64,000 nucleotides of DNA from NCBI GenBank assembly GCA_003971905.1, contig RSEE01000041.1:186001-250000 (forward strand), in the 5' to 3' direction. How positions within the stretch are numbered: the stretch's first letter is position 1; every line of letters starts with the position of its first letter. Made by a program: the position numbers and the translations under genes. Shown here one piece after another: positions 95 through 63,935 of this stretch. Source of the DNA: Moniliella sp. 'wahieum' (Eukaryota). Under the pieces are notes generated by a model. The model had not been told where the DNA came from. It saw only the letters and a list, made by a program, of their open reading frames with translations, and made no database searches.

Positions 95-480
95 TGGACG
101 TTGAAGCTTGAAGCTAGTACGTTGAAGCTTGTAAAAGCTTTGAAATTTGAGGGCCCAGAGGCTGCAAACGTTAAACGTTAGATTTTAAATCCGCAACCCG
201 CCTGCAGCGCCTGCAGCCACGGACACCCAGGAACAATTGAAATCGGTGGGGTCCAAGACACGGATTTAACCCGGTTGCACTTCTCCGCGCGAAGAGGCGC
301 AGCAATTACTGCTGTTATTCGACGTCTTACGCGTTACGCCTTATAGAGGGCTCAACCGGAGATGAACTCAGTCTGAGATCTGAGTGTACTCTCCTCGAGT
401 CACTATGGCTAGTCACTAGTCAAGAGGAAAGGGCTGAAAAAAGCCTGCCCGTGACGCGCGTGACGGGGCGACCGGCCTTG
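95..480. repeat. Island of 7-bp-period palindrome-plus-spacer mini-arrays
   Basis: AAGCTT-G-AAGCT 104-115, AACGTT-A-AACGTT 167-179, TCT-G-AGATCT-G-AG about 372-384, GCTAGT-C-ACTAGT 408-420. Confidence 0.8.
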
Positions 481-10106: not shown

Positions 10107-10197
10107 CTTCCCCATTTCCCATTTCCCATTTCCCATTTCTCCTTTCCGCTTTCCTCTTTCCTCTTTCCCATTCTCCTATTCCCAATTCCCATTCCCC
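10107..10197. repeat. Pyrimidine-rich 7-bp-period tandem array (CCCATTT)4 decaying into CTTTCCN/ATTCCCN units
   Basis: cccatttcccatttcccatttcccattt at 10111-10138, followed by ctttccg ctttcct ctttcct ctttccc ... attccca attcccc attcccc. Confidence 0.8.
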
Positions 10198-24183: not shown

Positions 24184-26039
24184 TCAGCAGAGCTCAGACA
24201 CGACGCCCTGCACCTTGGAGCTGTGCTGCAGGCAAGTAGGGAACTTAGTCTGACTCCTCCTCGTCCCCCCTCCCAGGGACTGCATCGACTTGCTCGTCCA
24301 AAAGTCCGTCCGTTGGCGCCGACTAATCCGAGCGAGCTTTTTGGGCCGTTCCTCCACTTCCTCGTCCAACTGCGGCGACCGAGTGCCTTGTTTCTCACTC
24401 GCGCTACCAGCCAGCTTGGTCGCGCTGCTTTTGCCCTCTGTGGCGTTCAAGGGGCTGGCGGGTTCACTGACAGGCTTCCCTGACCCCACCTCCACACCCA
24501 ATGTAGCTTCGACCTGGGCGCGCGTCTTCTCTCGCTCTGCTTGGCTCAATGGAGGCGAGGAAGAAGGGGAAGCAGAGGAAGGGGGGGAAGGCGGGGACTT
24601 GGTCGTCTTGGGCACGGCATCGGGCTGCTTCTCCCGTTCCAAAGGCTTGCTCAACTTGCTGTGCACGTAGCCCGACTCGGAGAGACGCGATAGCTGTAAT
24701 AGTCAGTACGATGGATCTCGGATCCGATGGCGGACAAATAAGAGGGGGGGGGGGGGAAGGGGGACGTACCCGATTGCGCTGTTTGATAGCCTCCTCTGAG
24801 ATACCGAGGATGCACCCCAAGAGCGAGCGGGGGTCCGGCTCGGCTCGACCGCTCGTCGTCGGCCTTGGTCATCAAATTTGGTGCGGGGCGGGCGAAGCAG
24901 GTGGCGGCCCGGGTCGGCAGTCGGATCAAATCGACACAAGGCACTGCTTAGTACGTCGTACGCACCGCTGAACGTTTGGCGCACGCTGAGAATGTTAAAG
25001 GAGGATTGGACACGTCGTTGGTCGTATCCAACGGATCTTCAATTGACAAGAGGAACGGACGCCGTTCGTCCTTCCATCCCGAACGCGCTTTGGAAAAGTA
25101 GCCGCCTTTGCCGCGAACAGTGATGCCAACCTGATCGTAATTGAATTGCTTGCCATAGAGCGAAAAAAATTCGAGCAACAAGACCCCAAGGTTGTCACAC
25201 GGGTCAATCTCCCGGCGCTGAACTTTGGGGTGCAATTGAAGAAAATTGATCACCAAGAGCGTGCACGCAAAGCTTCCCAGTCCACCAGAGTACACCTCAC
25301 TCAAGCCACGCTGGGCGAGCAAGAGCTTGACACACATGGTCAGCGGCCGCACGGCCGGTTGGCGCCGGAGCCACGAGTTGACAAAGCGCGCGGCGGCAAT
25401 ACCATTGGTGTGGTTGAGGGACATGTCCACCTTGAACTTGCCCAGAGAGGGAAGGGTGGTGAATTTGATGATGGGCACGCGGGCATGGGCAATGACTTGA
25501 ATGTCGTCAGCAATGCCATTGGTCTGGATGACGGTACGAAGCGCGTGGAGGATCCGCCGCGGGTTCTGCTGGCCCATCGACTCGGACACACAGACCAAGT
25601 CAATATCGCCTTGGGGCAGATAAAGACGCGTTTCTTGGCTGCCAAAGCTGTGCACTTGGGCATCGCGAAAGCGCGTGGTGACCGTCTGGCGGATGAGCTG
25701 GATCGCAGCGCGGCGGTCTCGTGCTCGTCGGGGGTAGGGGCGAGGTAGCGGTCAAACGCAACGATTTCCCGGTGCAGCGCTTGGGCGGCGTGGCGGGCGG
25801 TATGCCAGTCAACGTCCTTGGACCAGGGGGTGGCGAGGTCGAGCACGCCGGCATCGCGCTTGCGTTTGCGGGATTCGTGGGCCGGGGTGTCGTGGCCGTC
25901 GACGGACGCGATGAGGTCGTCAAGAGAGGGGGGCGGAGGAGAGTGGGTGGCGGGAGGGAGGGGGGGGAGGCGGGGGAGGGCCAAAGGAGATGAAGTCGTC
26001 CTGGAAGGCGCGACTGCTGTCGCGCTGTGTGGAGGCCAT
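24184..26039 (-). CDS. TRF4: Non-canonical poly(A) polymerase of the TRAMP complex (Trf4/5-like)
   Basis: FGSQETRLYLPQGDIDLV (GS/DxD nucleotidyltransferase motif), ARVPIIKF, RGLSEVYSGGLGSF, NLGVLLLEFFSLYG, LLSIEDP. ORF 24184-24666 is taken as the low-complexity last exon. Confidence 0.9.
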
Positions 26040-26338
26040 GGCGGTGGGGGTGGGGGGCGCTGGGGCTTGGTGTTGTGCTTGGTGCTGGTGCTTGGGCCCG
26101 GTGCTTGCAGCGTGCGAAGGCCAGCGCTGCCACACGGTTTGAGCCGTCGGCTGGAGAGCAGCAGAAAAAAACCACCTGCGCGGGCGGAATGGGCCACAGC
26201 GGGTGGCGCGGCGGAATGCCATCGCTGTTGCGATGGGCTGCATAATAACGTTGCAATATTGAAGGCGCCTTGACGTAATGTTTCAGTGCACTTACCAATT
26301 CCAATTTGTAAGCCGCATGTGTCACGGGCATCTTACCT

Positions 26339-28140
26339 CATCGATCCTCGATCATCGATCATCAGGTAGATCTCAACGGTCAAATCATTGCTTCGCCGAT
26401 CCTCGATCCTGGCCCCTTGTCCATTTCGGACCAGGGCATCCTTTGCTTCCCTTGGCCTTTGGTCTCAGATCGCACTCGTATCGCCAGACCCTTCCATGCA
26501 CCTGCTGGGAGTTGCAAATTAACTGGCCAACCCAACGTCCAACACGCTTTTTCGTGCGAACCGAACCAGACCGAACCTCAATAATGCGCCCGGTGATCGG
26601 TGATACCACCATTGACTTGACGTTTGACGCGTGACGCGTGACGTTTGACGCTCGTTTCCGCGTCTCCCTTAGCTTTTAAGCCTTGCGCGTTATGCGTTAC
26701 GAACGGGAAGTAGAAGAGATCGATGAGAGGGCCGGTGCGGTGAAAGGTCATGTGACCGGGTTTCACGCTTAGGACAAACCCTTAGGCCTTAGGCCTTACT
26801 AGGCCTTACTAGCTCCTAGTTACTAGCTTGACATGCATCACATGTGACATGTATGGACCGTGACATAGGCCAGTACTGTGATTATATCTTGAACAGGGCT
26901 TGGCACACATGGCACACATCACGGTGACTAGTGACTAGTGAGCTAGTGAGCTAGCTAGTGAGTAGTGACTAGCTACTGATTGCTTGATGCCGGCCGGTAT
27001 CCTGGGACGCGGAACTCAGCGCGTCAGATTTAAGCCGGAACAGGCCGGAACATCAAGTGGGTACGTTGAACGAGCTGAGTGCTTTGATGTTAATTTGATG
27101 CATGATGCATGATGCATGATGATCGATGAGACTGACGTACTCAGTACCAAGCCACTGGCGACTGAGGTATTGAGCGCAAGGTACTGAGCGCATAACGAAC
27201 CTAAGGCCTGAGGCGATGCATGGTGCATGCTCCATGATTAACTCGGGTACGAGGAGACCATTATCGATTATCCTTTAACGTTTAACGTTTAACGTACCTT
27301 GAACGCCTTGAACCTTTAAGCTTTACGCGTTGCGAGCTTTGCGAGCGCTTTGCGTTTTACAGGTTTAACTTGTAGCGGGTAAGGCGTAACGGTGACATGT
27401 GACATGCATGACATGAATGGCATGCCACATGTCACATGTCACTGTGATCGATGGCCAATTGATTGAAAAGCGATTGCAACCAAGTTGATAGCATTTTAAA
27501 TTTTACGGTTAAGAAATGCACCCATGTGTCTCACGTTTTGTACTAAACGTACTAGTCACCGATCACGATGTCACATGTCACATGATGCATGATGCATGAT
27601 GCATGACTTGTGGTGGCGTAAGAGACCATTACGCGGTACGCGTGACCGGTGACCGGGGACCGGGGACGCGTGACGGTGTGATTAGGGACTTGTGACTCGG
27701 GGACTGGAGCATGTGATACACGTATGACATGGGAGATCTGAGATCTGAGATCTGAGATCGGATGCAGATGCGCCTGGTGCGGCGGGGGCTGAATGGAAGG
27801 GTGTTTGTGTCTGGGTTGTGCGTTGCGTCGGATGTCCCGAATTGCAGGGCCTGGTTTGTTTTCGGTCCTGCGTCCCGCGCGTCACACCGTCACTTGATGA
27901 TTGATTGACCGATGGCCGACTGCATCGACGCGTGCATCATGCATCAGCCGAATGGGTAGGGTCGCAACGCAGGCCGCCGGCGGTATGCAGGGTGCGCATG
28001 GTCCAGCACACTTGCCCAACGACTCGGTGTGTGACATGTGCGTACGTGAGTCCAACGATGCTAGTTGCTCCGTGCCCGCACCCATTCATGAACCCATCCA
28101 TGCAGTCACGGCAGTCACTAGTCACTACTCACTAGTCACG
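26339..28140. repeat. Large island of 7-bp-period palindrome-plus-spacer mini-arrays
   Basis: ACGCGT x2 (26627-26639), AGGCCT x2 (26784-26796), ACATGT x2 (26840-26852, 27427-27439), ACTAGT x2 (26927-26939), ATGCAT x3 (27098-27117, 27585-27604), AACGTT x2 (27277-27289), AGATCT x3 (27734-27753). Confidence 0.92.
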
Positions 28141-28336
28141 GTGCGCTGGCTAGCTGACGATCCCAGGCACACACTGCTGCTGGTGGTGTGCTGTGCCGAG
28201 AGGCTGCAAGCAATCTTCGGCCGCGTTGGCTGAACCAATCCACGCCTGCTGGCAGCTGTGCGGGTGCCCCTTGCAGCCTGCCGTTCCTCCTGCCGTCCCC
28301 CCTGCTGCCCGCCCCACCGCCACCGCCCCCCGATCG

Positions 28337-31300
28337 ATGGCGTACAGCCAGCGCCAGCCCGTGCCTCCGCCGCGGATGACGACGTGTATGCGCGCCTACG
28401 CCTATGCGCCGCCGCCTGGCCTACCGACCGACCCGCCGAGCATGCCCGTGGGCGCGCCGCCCGCCCGCGTACGCCCGCCGCCGCCCGAGTACAGCCCCAG
28501 CGCCGCCTACCGCCCGCCGCCGCCATGCCGCCGCCGCCGCCGCCGTACCCCGTGCGCTATGCAGCCGCGACCGCGAGGCGGAGCCAGACGCACGCATGCC
28601 GCCCCCGCCGCCCCGGCCCCCTCGGTGCTGGGCCATGCGCCGCGCCCCTACTCGCCTGCCGCCCTCCCCACCGCCATCCGCCCGGGCCCCGCCGCTGCCC
28701 CTGGCCCCGGCCCCATCCCCATCCCGCCCCCGCCCATCGGCCCCGCGTCGTCGCCGTTGCCCTCGCCAGCCCAGGCGGGCCACCACCGCCCCCCTGGCAC
28801 CCGGGCATGCCGCCCCGCCGCGCGGGTACGAAGCGTCCCTCGCCCGCCGAGGGAGGCGGGGGAGGAGCGCGATGCGCATGCAGCGTATGAGCGCGAGCGC
28901 GCCCAGCGGGAGTATGAGTACGAGTACGAGTACGAGTACCAGGCCCAGGCTCAGGCTCATGCTCAGGCTCAAGCTCAGGCTCATGCTCACGCCCAAGCCC
29001 AAGCGCAAGCCCACGCCCACGCTCAAGCTCAAGCTCAAGCTCAAGCTCAAGCCCACGCTCAGGCTCAGGCTGCCCACGCCCAAGTCGACCCACTTCGCCA
29101 CGCGTCGCCTGCAGGAACGGAGGAGCGCGAGTGGGAGTGGAAGTGGGAGCGGGACAACGCGCGGCGTGGTCCCCATGCGCTGCATATGCTGCCTGCTGGC
29201 GAACGTACACGCGAACGGCTGATGGCGTACGAGCGGGAGTATGAGCTGAACCGCCAGCAGGGCGTCGCTATGAGTCTTCTCCCGCCCTACGCTGCTCCTC
29301 CTGACTCTGACGAGGGGAAGAGGATCGAGCGCAAGCGCAAGCGCTCGCGCATGCTCATGCTCATGCCCATGCTCAACAAGCCCATGCTCAACATGCCCAC
29401 GTTCAAGCGCAGACCCAAGCTCAAGCTCAAGCCCAAGCACACGCCCAAGCCGAAGCACAGCACAGGCACAGGCAGTACAAGCTGAAGCCGAAGCTCAATC
29501 TCAGGCACAAGCTCAAGCAGCTCAAGCAGCCGAAGCAGCTCATGCAGCTCAAGCAGCCGAAGCAGCCATGCAGCACAAGCGCAAGCACAAGCCCAGCCCA
29601 AGCCCAAGCCCAAGCCCAGGCCCAGGCCCAGATGGACGCCGCAGCTCATGCACATGCTCAACACATGGAGGCGTCCATGCCCCCACTGAGCCGAAGCGGA
29701 TGCGCACGCCCTTGCTCATGTTCCGGCTCATGCGCATGCCCAGGGCGAAGCGCACCGCCTCCGACCAACTCCGACGATGGGCAGGATGCCTCTTCCGCTG
29801 CAATCGCCCGTGGTACGAGAGAGACCGATAGAAGGGACAGGAGCGAGCGTGGCGCGCGTGGTGGCGCCCGTGCCGGTCCATGCTACGGCAGGAGGAAGAG
29901 GGAGTGTGGAAAATGGTGTTGCGCCGGGCACGGTGACTGCGGGTGCCGAGGCAGCTGGCACCAGCTCCTCGCCGCCTCTGCGCCCTGCCTCGGCCCAGCT
30001 CCCGGTTCCCGCCCGAGAACCGGTAGGGGTGATGAAAGAGTTGATGCAAGCCAATGTCGAAACGTGGTTGTCAATTGGTGTGTACAGTTTGGTTTCCGGC
30101 TGCTCGCTATGATATACTAACCTACCCCCCCCCCCCCCTTCCCGCGACGGTAGCCTCGGCGGCATCTACCATGGGCGGTCGCGATGGCTACGAACGGGCG
30201 ATTGAATCGATCCAGAATGCACTGCAGCACGATCCCCACTCGTTGGCGGCGCACCGAGCGCTGGGCAACGTGTACCGGGACATGGAGCAGCTGGACGTGG
30301 CGGTGGATGTGCTTCAACGCGCGCTCCAGCTGGCCCCTGAGGATGGCGAGACGTGGGGGGCGCTGGGCCACTGTTACCTGCTGATGGACGACTTGCAAAA
30401 TGCGTATGCGGCGTACCAGAAAGCGCTCTACAACCTGCCCAACGCCAAAGAACCACGGCTATGGTACGGGATTGGGATTCTGTACGACCGGTATGGTCTG
30501 TTGGACCAGGCCGAACAAGCCTTCTCGAGTGTGGTCAGCATGGACCGCGACTTTGACAAGGCCAACGAAATCTTTTTCCGTCTCGGGGTGATTTACAAGC
30601 AACAGCGCAAGTTTGCCGCCAGCCTCGAGTGTTTCCGCTACATTCTCCCTGACCCGCCCGCGCCGCTGAAACAGGCCGATATCCAGTTCCAAGTGGGCCA
30701 CGTGTCGGAACTGCAGGGCGACTTGGGGGCGGCGAAAGAAGCGTACGAGCGGGTGCTTGCCGAGCTGCCCCAGCACGCCAAGGTGCTGCAACAGCTGGGC
30801 GGCCTGTATCTTCACCCCGCCGCGCCATTTGCAGACCACGAGCGGGCGGTGGAGTACCTGACCATGTCGCTGGGGCGGATGCGGCGGATGCGCAAACGTG
30901 GTACCTTCTCGGTCGCGCCTTGATGGTTCAAGAAAACTACGACAAGGCGTACGAGGCGTACCAGCAGGCCGTGTACCGCGACGGGAACCAAGCTACGTTT
31001 TGGTGTTCGATTGGGCTGCTGTACTACCGGATTGAGCAGTACGAAGATACGCTGGATGCGTTTAGTCGTGCCATTCAGCTTCACCCGGGTATCCCCGAGG
31101 TTTGGTTCAACTTGGGCTGTCTGTACGAGACGTGCAACAACCAATGGCAAGATGCGCGGGACGCCTATGTGCGCGCGGCCCAGTTGGACCCGGACAATGC
31201 AGTGATCGCAGCGCGCTTGCGCTCCTTTCTCGCCCAACCTACCCAGCCTGTGCTCCCGCCCCGCCGACCACCAACGCCATTGGATGTCCCCCCGACGGTG

Positions 31301-32291
31301 CAGTACGTGTCGGGCTCGTACGAGCCGGCCGAAGGCGAAGAGGGGCCAGCGGCATCCCACGCCGCCGTACCGACTCTGCATGCGCTCGGGCCTGGAATGC
31401 AAGCGCCGAGAATGGCGAGCGGGCTACCTGCGCTGCAGCCCAAGGCGGGGGTCCCTCCCTCGTTCCAACGGCCGAACGGGAACGTGCCGACGCAGCGCCC
31501 AGTCCGCTTACCACGTCTGACGCGCGCCTCCCTGCGAACGGGGAGCTTGCGCAGCGCCCTGCTGGGCCCGGGGAGGGTGGGAGCCCGACGCTGCGTGCCC
31601 AAGACGACGGGTCGGGCGTGGGACGCGAGCCGGCGAGTGGTAAGAAAAAACGACCTTCGCCCCGCCCGCGCCGGAAAGCAAAAGTGTCCGATCCAGACGC
31701 CCCGAGAACGTAAAAGAAGAGCTGCGGGAAGCTGATAGCGGTGCGGTGGATGCGCTACTGGGTTTGGCCGGTGGCGCACGGTACCAGCAGCCTGTGCGGC
31801 CTCCTTCGGCGCCTACCGCCCCACCGGCCCTTTCGCCCCCACGCTCGTCAGTGGGGTCAGCGACCAGCGCACCAGCTCTGGCTAGCGTGCCGACGGGACG
31901 GCCTGGCAGTGCACTCGGTCGAGCCCCAACCAAGCGCGAGCGCTGGACCGCCGCTTCGCCCCTACAGCGAACAAGCGGCGTCGGGTGTCCAGTACAGGCC
32001 GTGGGCTCGAGGAGCGGGGACCTAGTCCTCCCTCGCATCCTCCTTCGCATCCCCCCTCGCGTCCTCCATCGCGTCCCCCCTCGCGTGCTACTTCGCGTCC
32101 CACCTCGCGTCCAGGCACCGAAGCGCACCCGTTGGTGCGCGAAAAGGTCATTGCCAGTCCAGGTGCCAGCGCTATCTCTGCCACTGGTTCCGAGCCTCTC
32201 CCGCGACCCTTCTCGCCCCTGTCCCCGGACGAGCCGCACCTTCGTCCGCACTCGGCCGGCGGCCGGCGAGCGCGGCCGGACGGACCACTGA
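28337..32291 (+). CDS. SSN6: General transcriptional corepressor Ssn6/Cyc8 (TPR protein) with long Pro-rich, EY- and QA-repeat N-terminus
   Basis: ANVETWLSIG, GETWGALGHCYLLMDDLQNAYAAYQKAL, EPRLWYGIGILYDRYG, KANEIFFRLGVIYKQQ, KAYEAYQQAVYRDG, FWCSIGLLYY, EVWFNLGCLYETCNNQ are hallmark Cyc8 TPRs. Ends are approximate. Confidence 0.93.
28910..29650 (+). repeat. Coding hexanucleotide repeats: (GAGTAY)5 = EY repeat and (CARGCN/CAYGCN)n = QA/HA repeats in SSN6
   Basis: gagtatgagtacgagtacgagtacgagtac at 28910-28939; caggcc caggct ... caagct caagct at 28940-29070 and again at about 29390-29650. Confidence 0.85.
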
Positions 32292-37523: not shown

Positions 37524-40384
37524 GCGTCTGTCTGTCACGTTGGGCATGATGCTGTACGGAGTGCTATTCTAGAACAGATCCTCTTCGGTTAGCGCTCTTG
37601 TCCTTCTATGTTCCGTGTGGTGTGCTCATTTCAGTGCACCCATCATGCTTCTCCCCCGCATGCCCCCCCATCCAAAATTGACATTGGCCTCGGGTCTTTG
37701 GCCGTCCCCCCTCCCCGTTGTCTGTTTCCTCTAGCTCGATGTCGTTAGACCGATAGGGGGTTCGACTAACGAGTCCAACCCGGAGGCTGAGATCAGGTTG
37801 CCAGATGGATCTGATCGTGAAAGGTTCCTTCATGGTCCCGCGACATCCGTAACAGTTATAACAGGTCTCACGGACGCACAAGAACAGTTTTGTTTGCCCC
37901 TCATTTCATTTTCGCCTTCCGATCCCACCCAGTATTCTCTTCCACCTTTTTGCTCATCTGCTGCCTTAATAGAGAAGTCGTTTAACACACGGCATGTTCC
38001 CTTGTTGAAGCACTCATCAGCCCCCCCATGGCGATATCCATGGTGCCGCCGTGTGCCCATTCAGGTTGAAAGTTGAACCAAGTTATACTTCGATCATTTC
38101 ACGCAGCCATGATGGGTTCTTGGCCTTGTTGGGCGTTATTGGCACACGAGATCTCAGCTTTGGGTCAATAGTAGCGACGTCCTGGTCCACCCAACCATGG
38201 AGACCGCAATGGATGCTGAAGTGTTTGGAACAGTAGCGTAGGCGATTGATTGCGGGCGAGAGATAGTGTTGGTGGTAGGAAGCAGAACGAGGGCTATATA
38301 GGAGAAGGCTACTAGTCGCTGGCTTACGCGTGTACGCGCGCATCAGCAGTCTTCGGGGAGCTCATGGAGCCTCGGGGCTATAGTAAGGTCGAAAGTGCAC
38401 CGCGATCAGCCATGAAGCCAGTCACTGTCGCAACACCATACAAGAGTCAAGAGGACAATGCGCTGTCTTGATGGTTGTTGGACCAACAGAGGTTCTCCAA
38501 GTACTAATGTGTTCTTCTCAGCCACTTCACCGTGGATCTTCCCCAATTCTAAATGTTCCATTCTTCGTATGCCACAGTAAATGGTCTTTTGGCCACGCAC
38601 GGTATGTAATTCCCATAATTGCATCCGTGGGGACAATCTTCTCGCCACTCACTCTCTCGTCTTGGTCATTGATGACGATTTTGACATAATGTGGCATCAT
38701 AATGGGGTCCGTAAGCTCTTTCAATACCAACTATGGGAACCATGTGACCCCTACGTCTGTGTTAATCACCTTCACACCCTTATTCCCTAACCGTAACAGT
38801 TAACCCCTCCCATCTTTTTCAAGCGCGCAAGCTATCCTAAGGCCTAAGGCATATAACTTTAAGAATCGTTTCTTCCTTTGAATCTATGTGATGGTAACGG
38901 TGTACGGGCACCCGCTCCAGACGCTGTCGTTGGGCATATGGGCATCGCGCGCTCTGCCACATATAATGTGGAAGGCCCCATTAGCTATATAGCGCCTCTT
39001 GTGATTTCTCTTGAATCTCCGCTACACATCCTTCCCTTGAGGGTGGGAGCGCGGGACCCTTTTTTCTGGACGGTAGTTTAGGGGTATAAACCCTTGGACA
39101 GATCAATCGGTAGCTCGTACATTAATAGGTCCTCCTCCAGATCCCGGTTGAACCGAGCGGGTGTAGAGCGAGGGAGAGACCCTCTAGTTTTGGTGGCTAT
39201 GCCTGCGTGCAAAGGCCGCAGCCCAGACCCTCCGAGGTAGGAGCCGCGTACGTAGGTAGTTAGACCAGCTGAAGGGGTCCAGGAGCTTAGAAGTTATCCT
39301 CTATTCTCCTTGCAGCGTTATCACACTCGGTACGCTGTAGCTGGCGGGAACAGACAGAGTCCTAAAGAAGAGCAAGCGCTACTGATGAGAGTAACCGCGG
39401 CTTGCAGTGCACTCGACGGAAGTCGTAAATTCGTAAGCGTAAGAGTAGTAGAAGGTGGAAGGGCGAGAGAGGAACTGGGTGTCGGGGAGACCAAAGGTAG
39501 GAGACAGAATGGTCGACAAGGACCACAGCTAGCAAGCCTTAGACATGGCTGCTTATATACAGCAGAGGGAACCAGGCCTCAAGTGCCTCATGACAGGTAT
39601 AGACAGAATGCGGGGCACTTCCCAGAGAGGTAAAGACTAATGCACAGCCCTTGCTCTCCATGGCGCTGACGCTGCGCGTAGTCGGGCGCAGCACCAAGGT
39701 TTCTGACAAGACTGGGCGCATTGGGCACAAAGCATCGTGCCGATAACCAATGATGCGACCATTATGGCGGGCCGCTGATGATATCCGCAGCAAGGATAAA
39801 GTGTCGACTGGCTCTCTCTCGCTAATCTAACCGGACTGACGCGTGTTGGGCTGAGATGTCTATGACATGCGGGGCTCAGCGCGCTCAGCGTCCGGAGATA
39901 ACCGGAGCGCCCCGTAACAGCGTTACACTTTTCCTCGTTCCCGTGTTGGGATAGCATATTATGTGCAGAGTGGAGGGTATCTTCCCACCGAGCAATAAGG
40001 GCCTAGCAAAAGGAGATTGTGAAGACTGATGAAGTCGATGAAGAAACTGATGGCCACGTACTGATAATATAGACCGCACGAAAGCCACTAGTAACTCGCA
40101 TTCAAACAAAGAGGGGAGAGAAGACGAAGTATTATTACATGAACCATCATGCATCAACATGTTCAACACGCACCAACTAGTACGCATCACGTTACGCTGC
40201 ACCCTCTTTTTCCGGCTTCCCTTTTCCATGGAGTGCGATGACATGTGCTTGTGACAGCCGCTGTTGCCAAGATTTGGGCCTCTAACAACGCCACCATAGC
40301 AATTAGGAACCGAAAAAAACTGGACTTTCGTATCGAAAAAGCAATTCAAAATTAAAGCAGATCATATGAAGGTGTGAGCACATG

Positions 40385-41545
40385 ATGAGCTTTTAAGCTT
40401 TAAGTGTGGGCTATAACGGAGAGCCTGGGGGAGCCTGGTGAATCCGGTGAATATAGGTGACTGTGGTGACATATAACGACTATATAGTGACTAGTGTTGA
40501 CGTTGATTAGTGACTCTAGTGACTCTAGTGACTATAGTGACAAGCGACTATAGTGACTCGCTAGTGACTAGTGACTAGCGACTTCTGATAATGACGTGAC
40601 GCGTGACGCGTGGCTAGTGACTAGTGACTAGTTTGACTGGTCGTCCTAGTGCATGATGTATGGCAGGTCCCTTATAGCCACAACAAGTGCACACTTACCG
40701 TATGGCCCCACAGTATACGCTCCGCCCCTCCATATAGTTGTCTTCGTTATGTCCTTTTAGCAATCGTTCTTCGGTAACCGGTAACGCGGCAACCGGTAAT
40801 GAAGGCTTAGCGCTTAGCCTAAGCGCTTAGCAAGCGCTTCTATGGTAGTGTCATGGATTTTTTCTGAGTCTATGAGATGGACTAGACCGAGGAGGCAAGC
40901 CCAGAGGCAAGCCCACATATGGGCATGCGGAGAAGAATCGGTAGTCCATCAGTTACATCAGTCTTCAAGCCTGTGAAGACTTTGTGATGAGCGTCGTACG
41001 TTGAATACTGTGGGAAACACGGGGCCTCTCTCAACGTCAAAAGCGCAGTGGTATCGTCATCGCCACACGTCATGACGCTGTGGAGAGCGTGGGTAAAAGA
41101 GTATGGCCCACTCACGCGAGGAGAGACCTGAGGCTCACAGGCCTGAGGGCTTGAGGCGGGCCAGGGTAGGTTTGATGGGCCTAGTATGCTCGAGTCCTCA
41201 GACCTGGGCCTTCGGCCTTAGGCCTTGGCCTCAATATTCAATGCGCTCAAGCTTCTTGAGCTCGTCAAGCTTCAAGCTTCAAGCTTCGAGGCGCTGAAGT
41301 GTTCGATACGATGTAGATGTTTTGATTATGTGACGGATACTAATGTCTGCGGGTCACTGGCGGACTGATCCATGATTGCACATGTTGGGCTTTTGCCGGC
41401 ATTCGCTTGAGGCCACGCGGGCATCACCATCCCCTGGCACAGGTGCCGAGGATTCAATATTCAAGCTTCAAGCTCCGGGCTGCTGATGCCTGAGCCTCAG
41501 ACCTTAGGCTAGAACCTTAGGCCTCTCAGACTCTAGGCCTTCCGG
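40385..41545. repeat. Island of palindrome-plus-spacer mini-arrays (7- and 9-bp periods)
   Basis: ACTCTAGT-G-ACTCTAGT-G-ACTATAGT 40513-40538, ACGCGT/ACTAGT chain 40599-40632, AAGCTT x3 41267-41286, AATATT-C-AAGCTT 41456-41468. Confidence 0.9.
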
Positions 41546-62369: not shown

Positions 62370-63935
62370 TTTCAAGCTTCAAGCTGTACTGAAGCAGCAT
62401 GCAGCGTGGACCTGGACCAATGTGAGTAGAGCATGACGTGCACGACGAGAGTGACGTGTTCAGCCCCAGCGCTCATCGAGCGCATCTCTAGCCGGGGGGG
62501 TCGATGAGATCGATCGTAGCCGGCGGTTTGGACGTGAGCCGGATGAATGCCGGAGTGGTAGGTGGTAGTGTATGGGATAGGGGAGACCCATAAACGCAAA
62601 GAACGACGTACACCAGCCTAGTGGACCCAGTTATGGATCTTAAAGCTTAACCCATAGCGGTGGCCATGAGGCATCGATGATGGAAGCTGGATGGTGGTGG
62701 CTATTGGCAAAGGCTGTGGCATGTGAACGAGAGTTGATTAATGATTCTGAATGTAGGGTATAGATGTAGGTACTCAAGTTACATATACACAGCGTCTCCT
62801 ATGCCAGCCGGGCTCACCGTTTGCTGACACAGCTGGGGGCCGTTGTGGGCATCGTTTTTGTGCGTGAAAAGTATGCGCTCCATTTCTTAGATCTGAGAGA
62901 TCTGATGAGATCTGAGATCTCCCGTGGGCCATGGTATGCGGTACGGCCTTTACCATTGTTGGGTATTGGTTGAGTCTAGTTATACTGGTTCCAGTTGCTA
63001 GGTGCTGTGGCTACCTGAAGGCCTGATATAGGATAGGCCTCATTACATTGACATATTATTGCACAGGTTGTACTGTTTTATGTCACATGTCAAGCTAGCG
63101 CATCCTCATGATGATGCATGATGGGTGTCACATGTCATCGCGTCATCAGTGTTTACGTTTACACAGTATCCGCCCTAGTATAGGCCTTGGCCTTACATAC
63201 AATCATAGCCAAACGTATCCGAACACCGCCGGTGTCCCTTTCAGGGCGATTGTGGCATGTGAGCGCCAGGCAGCTAAAGTGTATAAGGTGAACGCACCTT
63301 GAAAATTGACGCTACAGCGAAGCTCGACAACAGGGTGCTCACCAGTCGGTGACTGCCTTCGCCGTAGGTGCTGTTGAACGTACGTTGAACGTTGAACGTT
63401 GACTGAGCGAAATCTTCGTACTCACAGTGTACATCAATACTGCTTAGGCTGATATGCTGATGAGCTTTTAACCAGGGCCTCGGGGCTCATCGATCATCGT
63501 TTTCGCCAGCCACACAGCGCGTCACCGGCCTCAACGCACAGCAGTTTGGGTTTGAGAGTGGCACCACGATGAAGCTTGAAGCTTGACATAATGTTGACAC
63601 CTTGGACTTCCGCCGGCATCTGCACCACTTTTGTCAATACCGTGTTTCGCATCTCTCGCTCTGTCTAGTTACTTTGTTTGCCCCCTTTTCTAATGATCAC
63701 CTCTCTTCAACCTTCCAGCTTGATTAGCGTCATTCCGTACTGATGATCGAGAGACTTGTTTAGTCCTGGCGGTCCCCTCTTCGAGAGAGTGATGTCATCA
63801 CACTGGTGGTGGTGGTCGAAGCCATCCTACAGAGGAGCGTAAAGCTGACCACCGCCAGGGGCTATTAGGCTGCGGAACAAGGAAAACAGAAACGAGAAAA
63901 CAGAACTCCTATAGTAGGCCTGAGGCCTCTGAGGC
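62370..63935. repeat. Island of 7-bp-period palindrome-plus-spacer mini-arrays
   Basis: AGATCT x2 62908-62920, AACGTT x2 63388-63400, AAGCTT x2 63572-63584, AGGCCT x2 63916-63928. Confidence 0.88.

Follow-up and report, generated by a model that had tools for sequence, protein, structure and literature searches.

How do different palindromic units come to lie in phase with one another in the same short arrays? The question is raised by a divergent intergenic region (26223..28336, with bounds placed from start codons read off the sequence) in the 64,000-nucleotide stretch of DNA analyzed here, which we call the window (C41:186001-250000, in an assembly of 69.5 Mb and 223 contigs). To its left lies the 5' part of a Cid1/Trf4-type poly(A) polymerase gene on the minus strand (24951..26222; Pfam matches to PAP_assoc and MTPAP-like_central at 24951-25655, putative ATG at 26222-26220), and to its right a CYC8/SSN6-like TPR corepressor gene on the plus strand (28337..31735, 3' end unmapped; TPR Pfam matches, homologs named corepressor/ssn6, putative ATG at 28337). 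The CYC8-like gene has long Gln/Ala/His hexamer repeats at 28949-29630, and many contigs carry similar tracts. The closest named protein matches are in Ustilaginomycotina (38-61% identity).

An earlier note on this DNA had quoted five strings of such units, every one of which is present letter for letter, and had argued that a switch from one palindrome to another takes two compensatory substitutions, symmetry being actively restored by intra-strand templating or maintained by selection. Its labels hold for ACGCGT, ACCGGT, AATATT and AAGCTT, which are palindromes; ACCGGG, GACGTT and the units TGACGTT and TGACGCT, read in phase, lack that symmetry. The premise of two changes per switch fails for ATGCAT and ACATGT, which differ at four positions, and the true two-change adjacent palindrome pairs among the quoted strings are only ACGCGT/ACCGGT and AATATT/AAGCTT.

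The assembly contains a second colinear copy of the locus (C42, 92% identity over the locus), and the C41/C42 alignment (421,432 columns, substitutions in 3.0% of the aligned columns) served as the orthologue test. An older paralogous pair, C7/C55, contributed only 30 kb from each member, as a further haplotype pair, its non-coding DNA being too far from the window to align. The four syntenic copies (C41/C42 ~94% identical, C7/C55 ~94%, and 72-85% between the pairs in coding DNA) suggest an old whole-genome duplication combined with a heterozygous or hybrid diploid assembly; 12 XPG-family matches are also found in the assembly. Over 421 kb, C41 and C42 differ by 3,855 indels of one base and 1,229 of two bases, and genes are frameshifted. 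These are probably uncorrected long-read assembly errors, and because of the ~3,900 one-base indels only indels with clean flanks were classified. The possibility that the arrays themselves are a sequencing artefact was rejected: independent contigs share them, and the assembly noise is 1-3 bp.

The lengths of the C41/C42 indels peak at 7 bp (137 cases, versus 100 at 6 bp and 40 at 8 bp). Among the 105 clean 7-bp indels are 22 in which a spacer of 2 bp separates the copies of a 5-bp repeat; for 21 of the 22, the spacer is the exact reverse complement of the neighbouring two bases. When these 21 symmetric indels are oriented, the repeat begins with T in 20 and with T-N-A in 16; standing 5+2+5 tracts, by comparison, are symmetric in only 128 of 470 cases. 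We conclude with high confidence that the arrays arise by one recurrent 7-bp insertion at T-N-A, TNAxy > TNAxy-y'x'-TNAxy, which adds a direct copy of 5 bp together with an inverted copy of the last two bases. Applied on either strand, this rule rebuilds 50 of the 105 clean indels letter for letter, and plain duplication alone accounts for 6; the remaining 49 fit neither exactly, many of them resembling one-mismatch versions. Exact adjacent copies make up 29 of the 105, of which the rule also fits 23; hence 27 indels are explained by the rule only, versus the 6 explained by duplication only. Minor 6-, 8- and 9-bp variants are present among the haplotype indels. Set against the 12,275 substitutions that separate the haplotypes, the 50 exact events amount to a rate of about 1 per 250.

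The direction of the change can be read from an LTR-like repeat (39380..39925, plus strand; at least 40 copies at 86-90%), which sits directly upstream of array-rich DNA at 40.1-42.2 kb. Alignment of the best 40 of its 239 candidate copies reveals five insertions of 7 nt, each consistent with the rule on inspection by eye, and not a single deletion of that length, the five polarised events being a small sample.

As standing sequence, the rule motif occurs 434 times in 404 kb, compared to ~9 expected. These occurrences represent 269 distinct sites, or ~46,000 genome-wide by extrapolation. The length of match runs peaks at 5, not 7, and the runs mostly begin at T and finish at y. The geometry is fixed, in that 1 or 3 inverted bases show no enrichment, and N is copied unchanged in 520 cases versus flipped in 34. 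All 16 xy dinucleotides occur, N follows the background composition, and a search of 161 isolated events revealed no target consensus beyond T-N-A. Plain 7-bp duplications at TNA (130 cases) are not in excess, their number being similar to that for other letter pairs, and perfect period-7 runs in 204 kb are symmetric in 83 of 132 cases. The sites are strongly clustered, 162 of the 269 falling within 32.5 of the 404 kb (8%), a fraction that includes the CYC8 divergent region. Site density is similar across gene-orientation classes (1.1-1.4 per kb, versus 0.22 in coding-like DNA), although the gene calls behind these classes cover only 21% of bases and the densities do not establish promoter specificity. 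Two other repeats were seen: (CCCATTT)12 at 10111-10197, of period 7, non-palindromic and outside the rule; and a period-11 variant, TGA-ACGT-ACGT-TGA-ACGT, a doubled palindromic core in a 7-bp array, at 63373-63402 of the window and at ~473.8 kb of C41.

The intergenic region itself (2.1 kb) contains 16 distinct TNAxy-y'x'-TNAxy sites, 12 of them in 26610-27672. The array (TGACGNN)5 on the plus strand (26618..26652, one of the quoted strings), obeys the rule only in its TGACG-CG-TGACG part, and 14 bp of it are missing in C42. It is followed by TTAGG-CC-TTAGG and TAAGG-CC-TAAGG sites (26780..26812), and by the quoted plus-strand string ATGCAT-C-ACATGT-G-ACATGT (26826..26852), in which the cores are four positions apart, the spacer changes from C to G, and the rule fits at 4/5 on the right side and 2/5 on the left. 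A TGACT-AG array (26924..26972) shows decay that differs between the two haplotypes. At 27096..27129, (TGATGCA)3 TGATG precedes TCATC-GA-TCATC on the minus strand, and C42 is one unit shorter; at 27261..27331, TTATC-GA-TTATC, which C42 lacks, is combined with (TTAACGT)n and the chimeric junction AAGCTT-T-ACGCGT. The TGACA-TG and TCACA-TG arrays (27393..27441) include GCATGC-C-ACATGT, a point change relative to C42. A single minus-strand event, TAAAA-TT-TAAAA (27494..27505), is not found in C42, and TCACA-TG-TCACA is followed by (TGATGCA)n at 27569..27606. The quoted ACGCGT/ACCGGT array on the plus strand (27638..27675) ends as TGACG-CG-TGACG in C42; C42 has ACCGGT where the window has ACCGGG, which identifies ACCGGG as a point mutation copied along. 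Further to the right are (TGAGATC)n (27733..27759, one unit shorter in C42) and a TCACT-AG array (28113..28139, mostly missing in C42). The two quoted strings from elsewhere in the window are both on the plus strand. The string at 97..115 contains TGAAG-CT-TGAAG, which obeys the rule, beside the non-palindromic GACGTT. The string at 41452..41474 is a two-way site, ATTCA-AT-ATTCA to the left and TCAAG-CT-TCAAG to the right with TCA in common, and both predicted outer 5-bp copies match at 5/5.

TNA is the same on both strands, so a site can fire to the left or to the right. A rightward event converts pq-TNA-xy into pq-TNA-xy-y'x'-TNA-xy, and a leftward event converts it into pq-TNA-q'p'-pq-TNA-xy; as one site can fire either way, unrelated palindromic cores come to lie in phase. 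Repeated insertion in the same direction, or slippage, extends a uniform array, and insertion in the opposite direction puts a different palindrome in phase, i.e., creates a chimera. Chimeras could also form by one substitution in a terminal half-unit followed by a new insertion, a route that the ACCGGT > ACGCGT switch, as in C42, appears to fit. After insertion, the units decay neutrally. We examined 14 chimeric junctions in array-rich DNA. Both outer copies match at 4/5 or better in 8 of them, perfectly in 6; in the other 6, only one side agrees with the two-way model, and these include two junctions from the quoted strings (26838 and 27643), which fit on the right side. In the two cleanest chimeras both tracts end at the positions predicted by the rule, and at a site beyond the window the haplotypes carry events of opposite direction, left versus right, at the same TCA. 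The cores differ at four positions in 9 of the 14. In a simulation with the rule and random substitutions, without repair or selection, the ratio of chimeric to same-unit junctions was 0.23-0.32, compared to 14/70 = 0.20 observed. Independent placement would give 31.7 chimeric junctions instead of 14; the rule predicts a deficit in qualitative terms. The insertion rule alone suffices for the chimeras, and no symmetry repair or selection is required.

This result bears directly on the proposal that paired substitutions change the core of an existing unit, driven by quasi-palindrome correction or by selection for symmetry. In the window alone, different palindromes 7 bp apart form 25 pairs versus 10-46 at other distances, i.e., no excess. 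In 404 kb of C41, different A..T palindromes number 24, 23 and 20 at offsets 7, 14 and 21, versus 3-16 at other offsets from 6 to 29, and are about twice as common in phase as out of phase. The expectation that neighbouring units differing at two positions should be palindromic above the chance rate was borne out in one form of the test. When pooled, such neighbours are palindromic in 16 of 106 cases versus 36 of 213 off phase, and in 2 of 33 after two-unit anchors; the pooled test fails because terminal half-units dilute it. At mirror positions genome-wide they are palindromic in 42 of 52 (p=3e-12) and 44 of 66 cases, where chance gives 1/3; these tallies use two anchor units and count haplotype twins twice, and the second was counted by hand. 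The mirror-position test in the C41 sample alone gives 8 palindromic versus 12 non-palindromic cases, the same as at off-phase offsets.

Although the mirror-position tallies favour paired substitutions, the insertion rule alone yields an equal excess: simulated two-change neighbours are palindromic in 65-80% of cases under the rule and in 14-43% under plain duplication, compared to 67-81% observed. If quasi-palindrome correction were acting, orthologous palindromes would be kept perfect; in the reconstruction from orthologues, which covers both haplotype pairs, double changes at mirror positions stay palindromic in only 7 of 22 cases (chance 1/3, p=0.64), and C41/C42 aligned palindromes with two differences are still palindromic in 5 of 140. 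Breakage by a single change is common (72 versus 235 intact in the rich regions), and array-rich DNA diverges by 4.2% compared to 2.9% elsewhere (a class that includes coding DNA). Together with the four-position distance between the cores of most chimeras, these results make paired substitution a very improbable explanation. The idea of intra-strand templating survives in a narrower form: the two neighbouring bases serve as the template for the second half of each palindrome, and existing units are not restored. Symmetry is written once, at insertion, and the units are neither repaired nor conserved.

What agent writes it is a question on which we hold a preference only somewhat firmer than even, namely that the insertion is the end-joining scar, with hairpin-derived P nucleotides, of a cut of the RAG/Transib/EnSpm (CMCT) type. 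A dimeric enzyme with CMCT chemistry would act on a 7-bp NN-TNA-NN target, duplicated as the element inserts. On excision the flanks would be sealed as hairpins; one of these would be opened at a point 2-3 nt beyond its tip, leaving a palindromic overhang that takes the place of pq and is joined to the opposite flank by way of the shared T. If the element stayed at low copy number while it moved about accessible non-coding DNA over a long period, scars would be numerous and occupied sites rare. As such a scar requires, the inverted bases exactly complement the terminal flank with no spacer (21 of the 22 indels, 434 motifs), and a direct target copy stands on both sides of the joint, with the 5 bp TNAxy retained. 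The fixed geometry, the 6-, 8- and 9-bp variants and the flipped-N class are all expected from end joining of an opened hairpin.

Of six transposase families searched for in the assembly, only Tnp2/EnSpm matched. The matches to Tnp2 (PF02992), putative transposase genes, are on C17 (over the cut-off) and C34 (under the cut-off), with a partner on C62. They lie among ordinary genes, at C17:557 kb and C62:282 kb (both haplotypes) and at C34:513-517 kb, and are possibly domesticated; the frames on C62 and C34 are broken, in an assembly that has many 1-bp indels. No TIRs were seen at the two Tnp2-like loci examined, and the assembly has no second copy of the C34 locus that would mark its ends. Exact and relaxed scans of ~860 kb (~1.3% of the genome) failed to turn up any element with TIRs inside a 7-bp duplication centred on TNA, and no such element is among the large haplotype-specific insertions listed, which are mostly LTR elements. 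As no occupied site was found, membership in CMCT is not claimed. The hAT dimerisation domain (PF05699) had no match in the assembly, with a search control that gave none either; KDZ, Plavaka, MULE and PIF/Harbinger likewise had no match, in searches whose controls matched only for MULE and PIF. One DRMBL (Pso2/Artemis-type) match was recorded at C175:29408-29614, in a low-sensitivity search and despite up to four copies per gene.

Several other repeats were noted in these scans. A stretch of 1.7-2.2 kb on C41 (~331412-333124) and its C42 partner has CACAGGCACA...TGTGCCTGTG at its boundaries and GCGGCG on either side; it may be the remnant of a CACTA-like element, and its target is not of the TNA type. 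Two 5.55-kb LTR retrotransposons (C41 ~324816-330367 and 380429-385984), which are 99.7% identical, absent from C42 and accompanied by related solo LTRs, appear from these features to be recently active. Positions 2880-2968 of the C34 Tnp2-like locus sequence contain a repeat of ~81 bp (611 candidate copies, at 88-99%), which resembles the end of C42 insertions with 8-11 bp duplications (SINE- or LINE-end-like).

The product could also arise with no transposon at all. A 5-nt 3' flap at a nick, ending in T-N-A, would fold back, be extended by 2 nt to the flap base and be ligated to the downstream strand, giving a minimal inverted triplication. We regard this route as distinctly less probable than the hairpin scar, although it predicts the exact product, zero-spacer junction included, and needs neither occupied sites nor plain duplications, both of which are indeed missing. 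Fold-back of a 3' flap has been proposed as the origin of small inverted triplications in the available part of PMC13334657; the known examples described there measure ~148/160/148 bp with a 30-bp spacer. Under flap fold-back the length should vary, yet 1 or 3 inverted bases are unenriched; priming by a single T-A pair would be weak, and the flipped-N class is not predicted. A FEN1-like gene with catalytic-region motifs is, moreover, predicted in the genome; the frame is on C19, with a likely partner on C14, and we take it to be FEN1-like from motifs recognised by eye. A host enzyme, either a domesticated Tnp2-like protein or a topoisomerase- or recombinase-like nuclease, could instead cut T-N-A in open chromatin and leave a hairpin scar without any element. 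Its geometry would be identical to that of the excision scar, TIR-less Tnp2-like genes do stand between ordinary genes, one of them on both haplotypes (C17/C62), and mobile copies were not found in the ~860 kb scanned or at the Tnp2-like loci. We nevertheless consider such an enzyme improbable: an element-free duplication requires that a single reaction combine a staggered cut with fill-in and the making of a hairpin, and we know of no precedent for this; moreover, the Tnp2-like frames are broken on C62 and C34, where 1-bp assembly indels are common.

Both alternatives belong to a broader and tentative picture, held at about the same low level as flap fold-back, of a smut-related yeast lineage with an element-free, site-specific mutator that continually writes 7-bp palindromic units, templated by the flank, at T-N-A in regulatory DNA and thereby both builds promoter architecture and turns it over; this mutator would be either a host nuclease, such as a domesticated Tnp2-like protein, or a flap reaction of fixed geometry. 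The strong clustering described above could also point to a selected protein-binding or chromatin code, with T-G/C-A half-sites at a 7-bp period in promoters, grown by slippage. This is highly unlikely, since all 16 xy dinucleotides are in use with N at background, the divergence of the arrays is not reduced, the same events occur inside LTR copies, and births are not plain duplications. The arrays may have gained a regulatory use later.

The chimeras are a by-product, and what they reveal is a precise, frequent and polarised mutation that makes palindromes and tandem repeats in one step. The rule provides a countable natural model for the birth of both microsatellites and palindromes, and it advises caution, because symmetric promoter motifs can be mutational scars instead of binding sites. 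If the insertion is an excision scar, the sites together form a record, across the whole genome, of a transposase that makes hairpins and whose 7-bp TNA target is unusual.

Our searches, which missed most subscription papers and supplements, found no published description of the 7-bp insertion pattern. In RAG joints, the P nucleotides have an even-centred palindrome register, which the units here fit. Like P nucleotides in V(D)J, Transib and CMCT joints, the bases inserted here are inverted terminal bases without a spacer beside a direct target copy, and small joint variants occur. In contrast to CMCT excision, there is one dominant product, a TNA-centred target and tens of thousands of sites, and a cognate element was not found in ~860 kb or at the Tnp2-like loci. 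Flank hairpins form for hAT, Transib, RAG and MULE, according to the accessible text of PMC5499845. CMCT elements have target duplications of 2-5 bp in the part of PMC12730594 available, compared to the 7-bp target here, and real hairpin footprints are more varied, with 28 types in 128 Ds events in the available text of PMC5873905. The Ac/Ds (hAT) footprint resembles the present product as a flank-templated palindromic insertion joined by microhomology; as the same text has it, Ac/Ds palindromes are centred on the base complementary to the one that adjoins the element. An origin as a hAT excision footprint was rejected on this register, the centre here being even (xy|y'x') and N being kept in 520 cases versus flipped in 34.

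The triplications of rad27/FEN1 mutants share the direct/inverted/direct order (here Axy / y'x'T / Axy). Their size is ~150 bp, with a spacer of ~30 bp and a junction of ~6 bp, in the available part of PMC13334657, unlike the far smaller, site-specific product here, with its fixed 7 bp and spacer of 0. Loss of FEN1, as in rad27 mutants, does not appear to apply, the putative FEN1-like gene being present. Small inverted triplications can be removed by slippage, as stated in the accessible text of PMC13334657 and PMC5677150. As in slippage microsatellites, uniform arrays gain or lose whole 7-bp units (the 29 exact adjacent copies among 105), but a microsatellite unit would be born by exact unit duplication, and birth here is a 5+2 event. 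The 10-bp repeat of Ustilago maydis is a fixed word, whereas the core here is copied from the flank, a comparison made by description only. The Ustilago repeats are intergenic, numerous and interpreted as footprints, and come from the same subphylum, and the TNA-4-TNA core here is likewise 10 bp (available text of PMC4081816, citing Laurie et al. 2012). The insertion rule may also account for these repeats.
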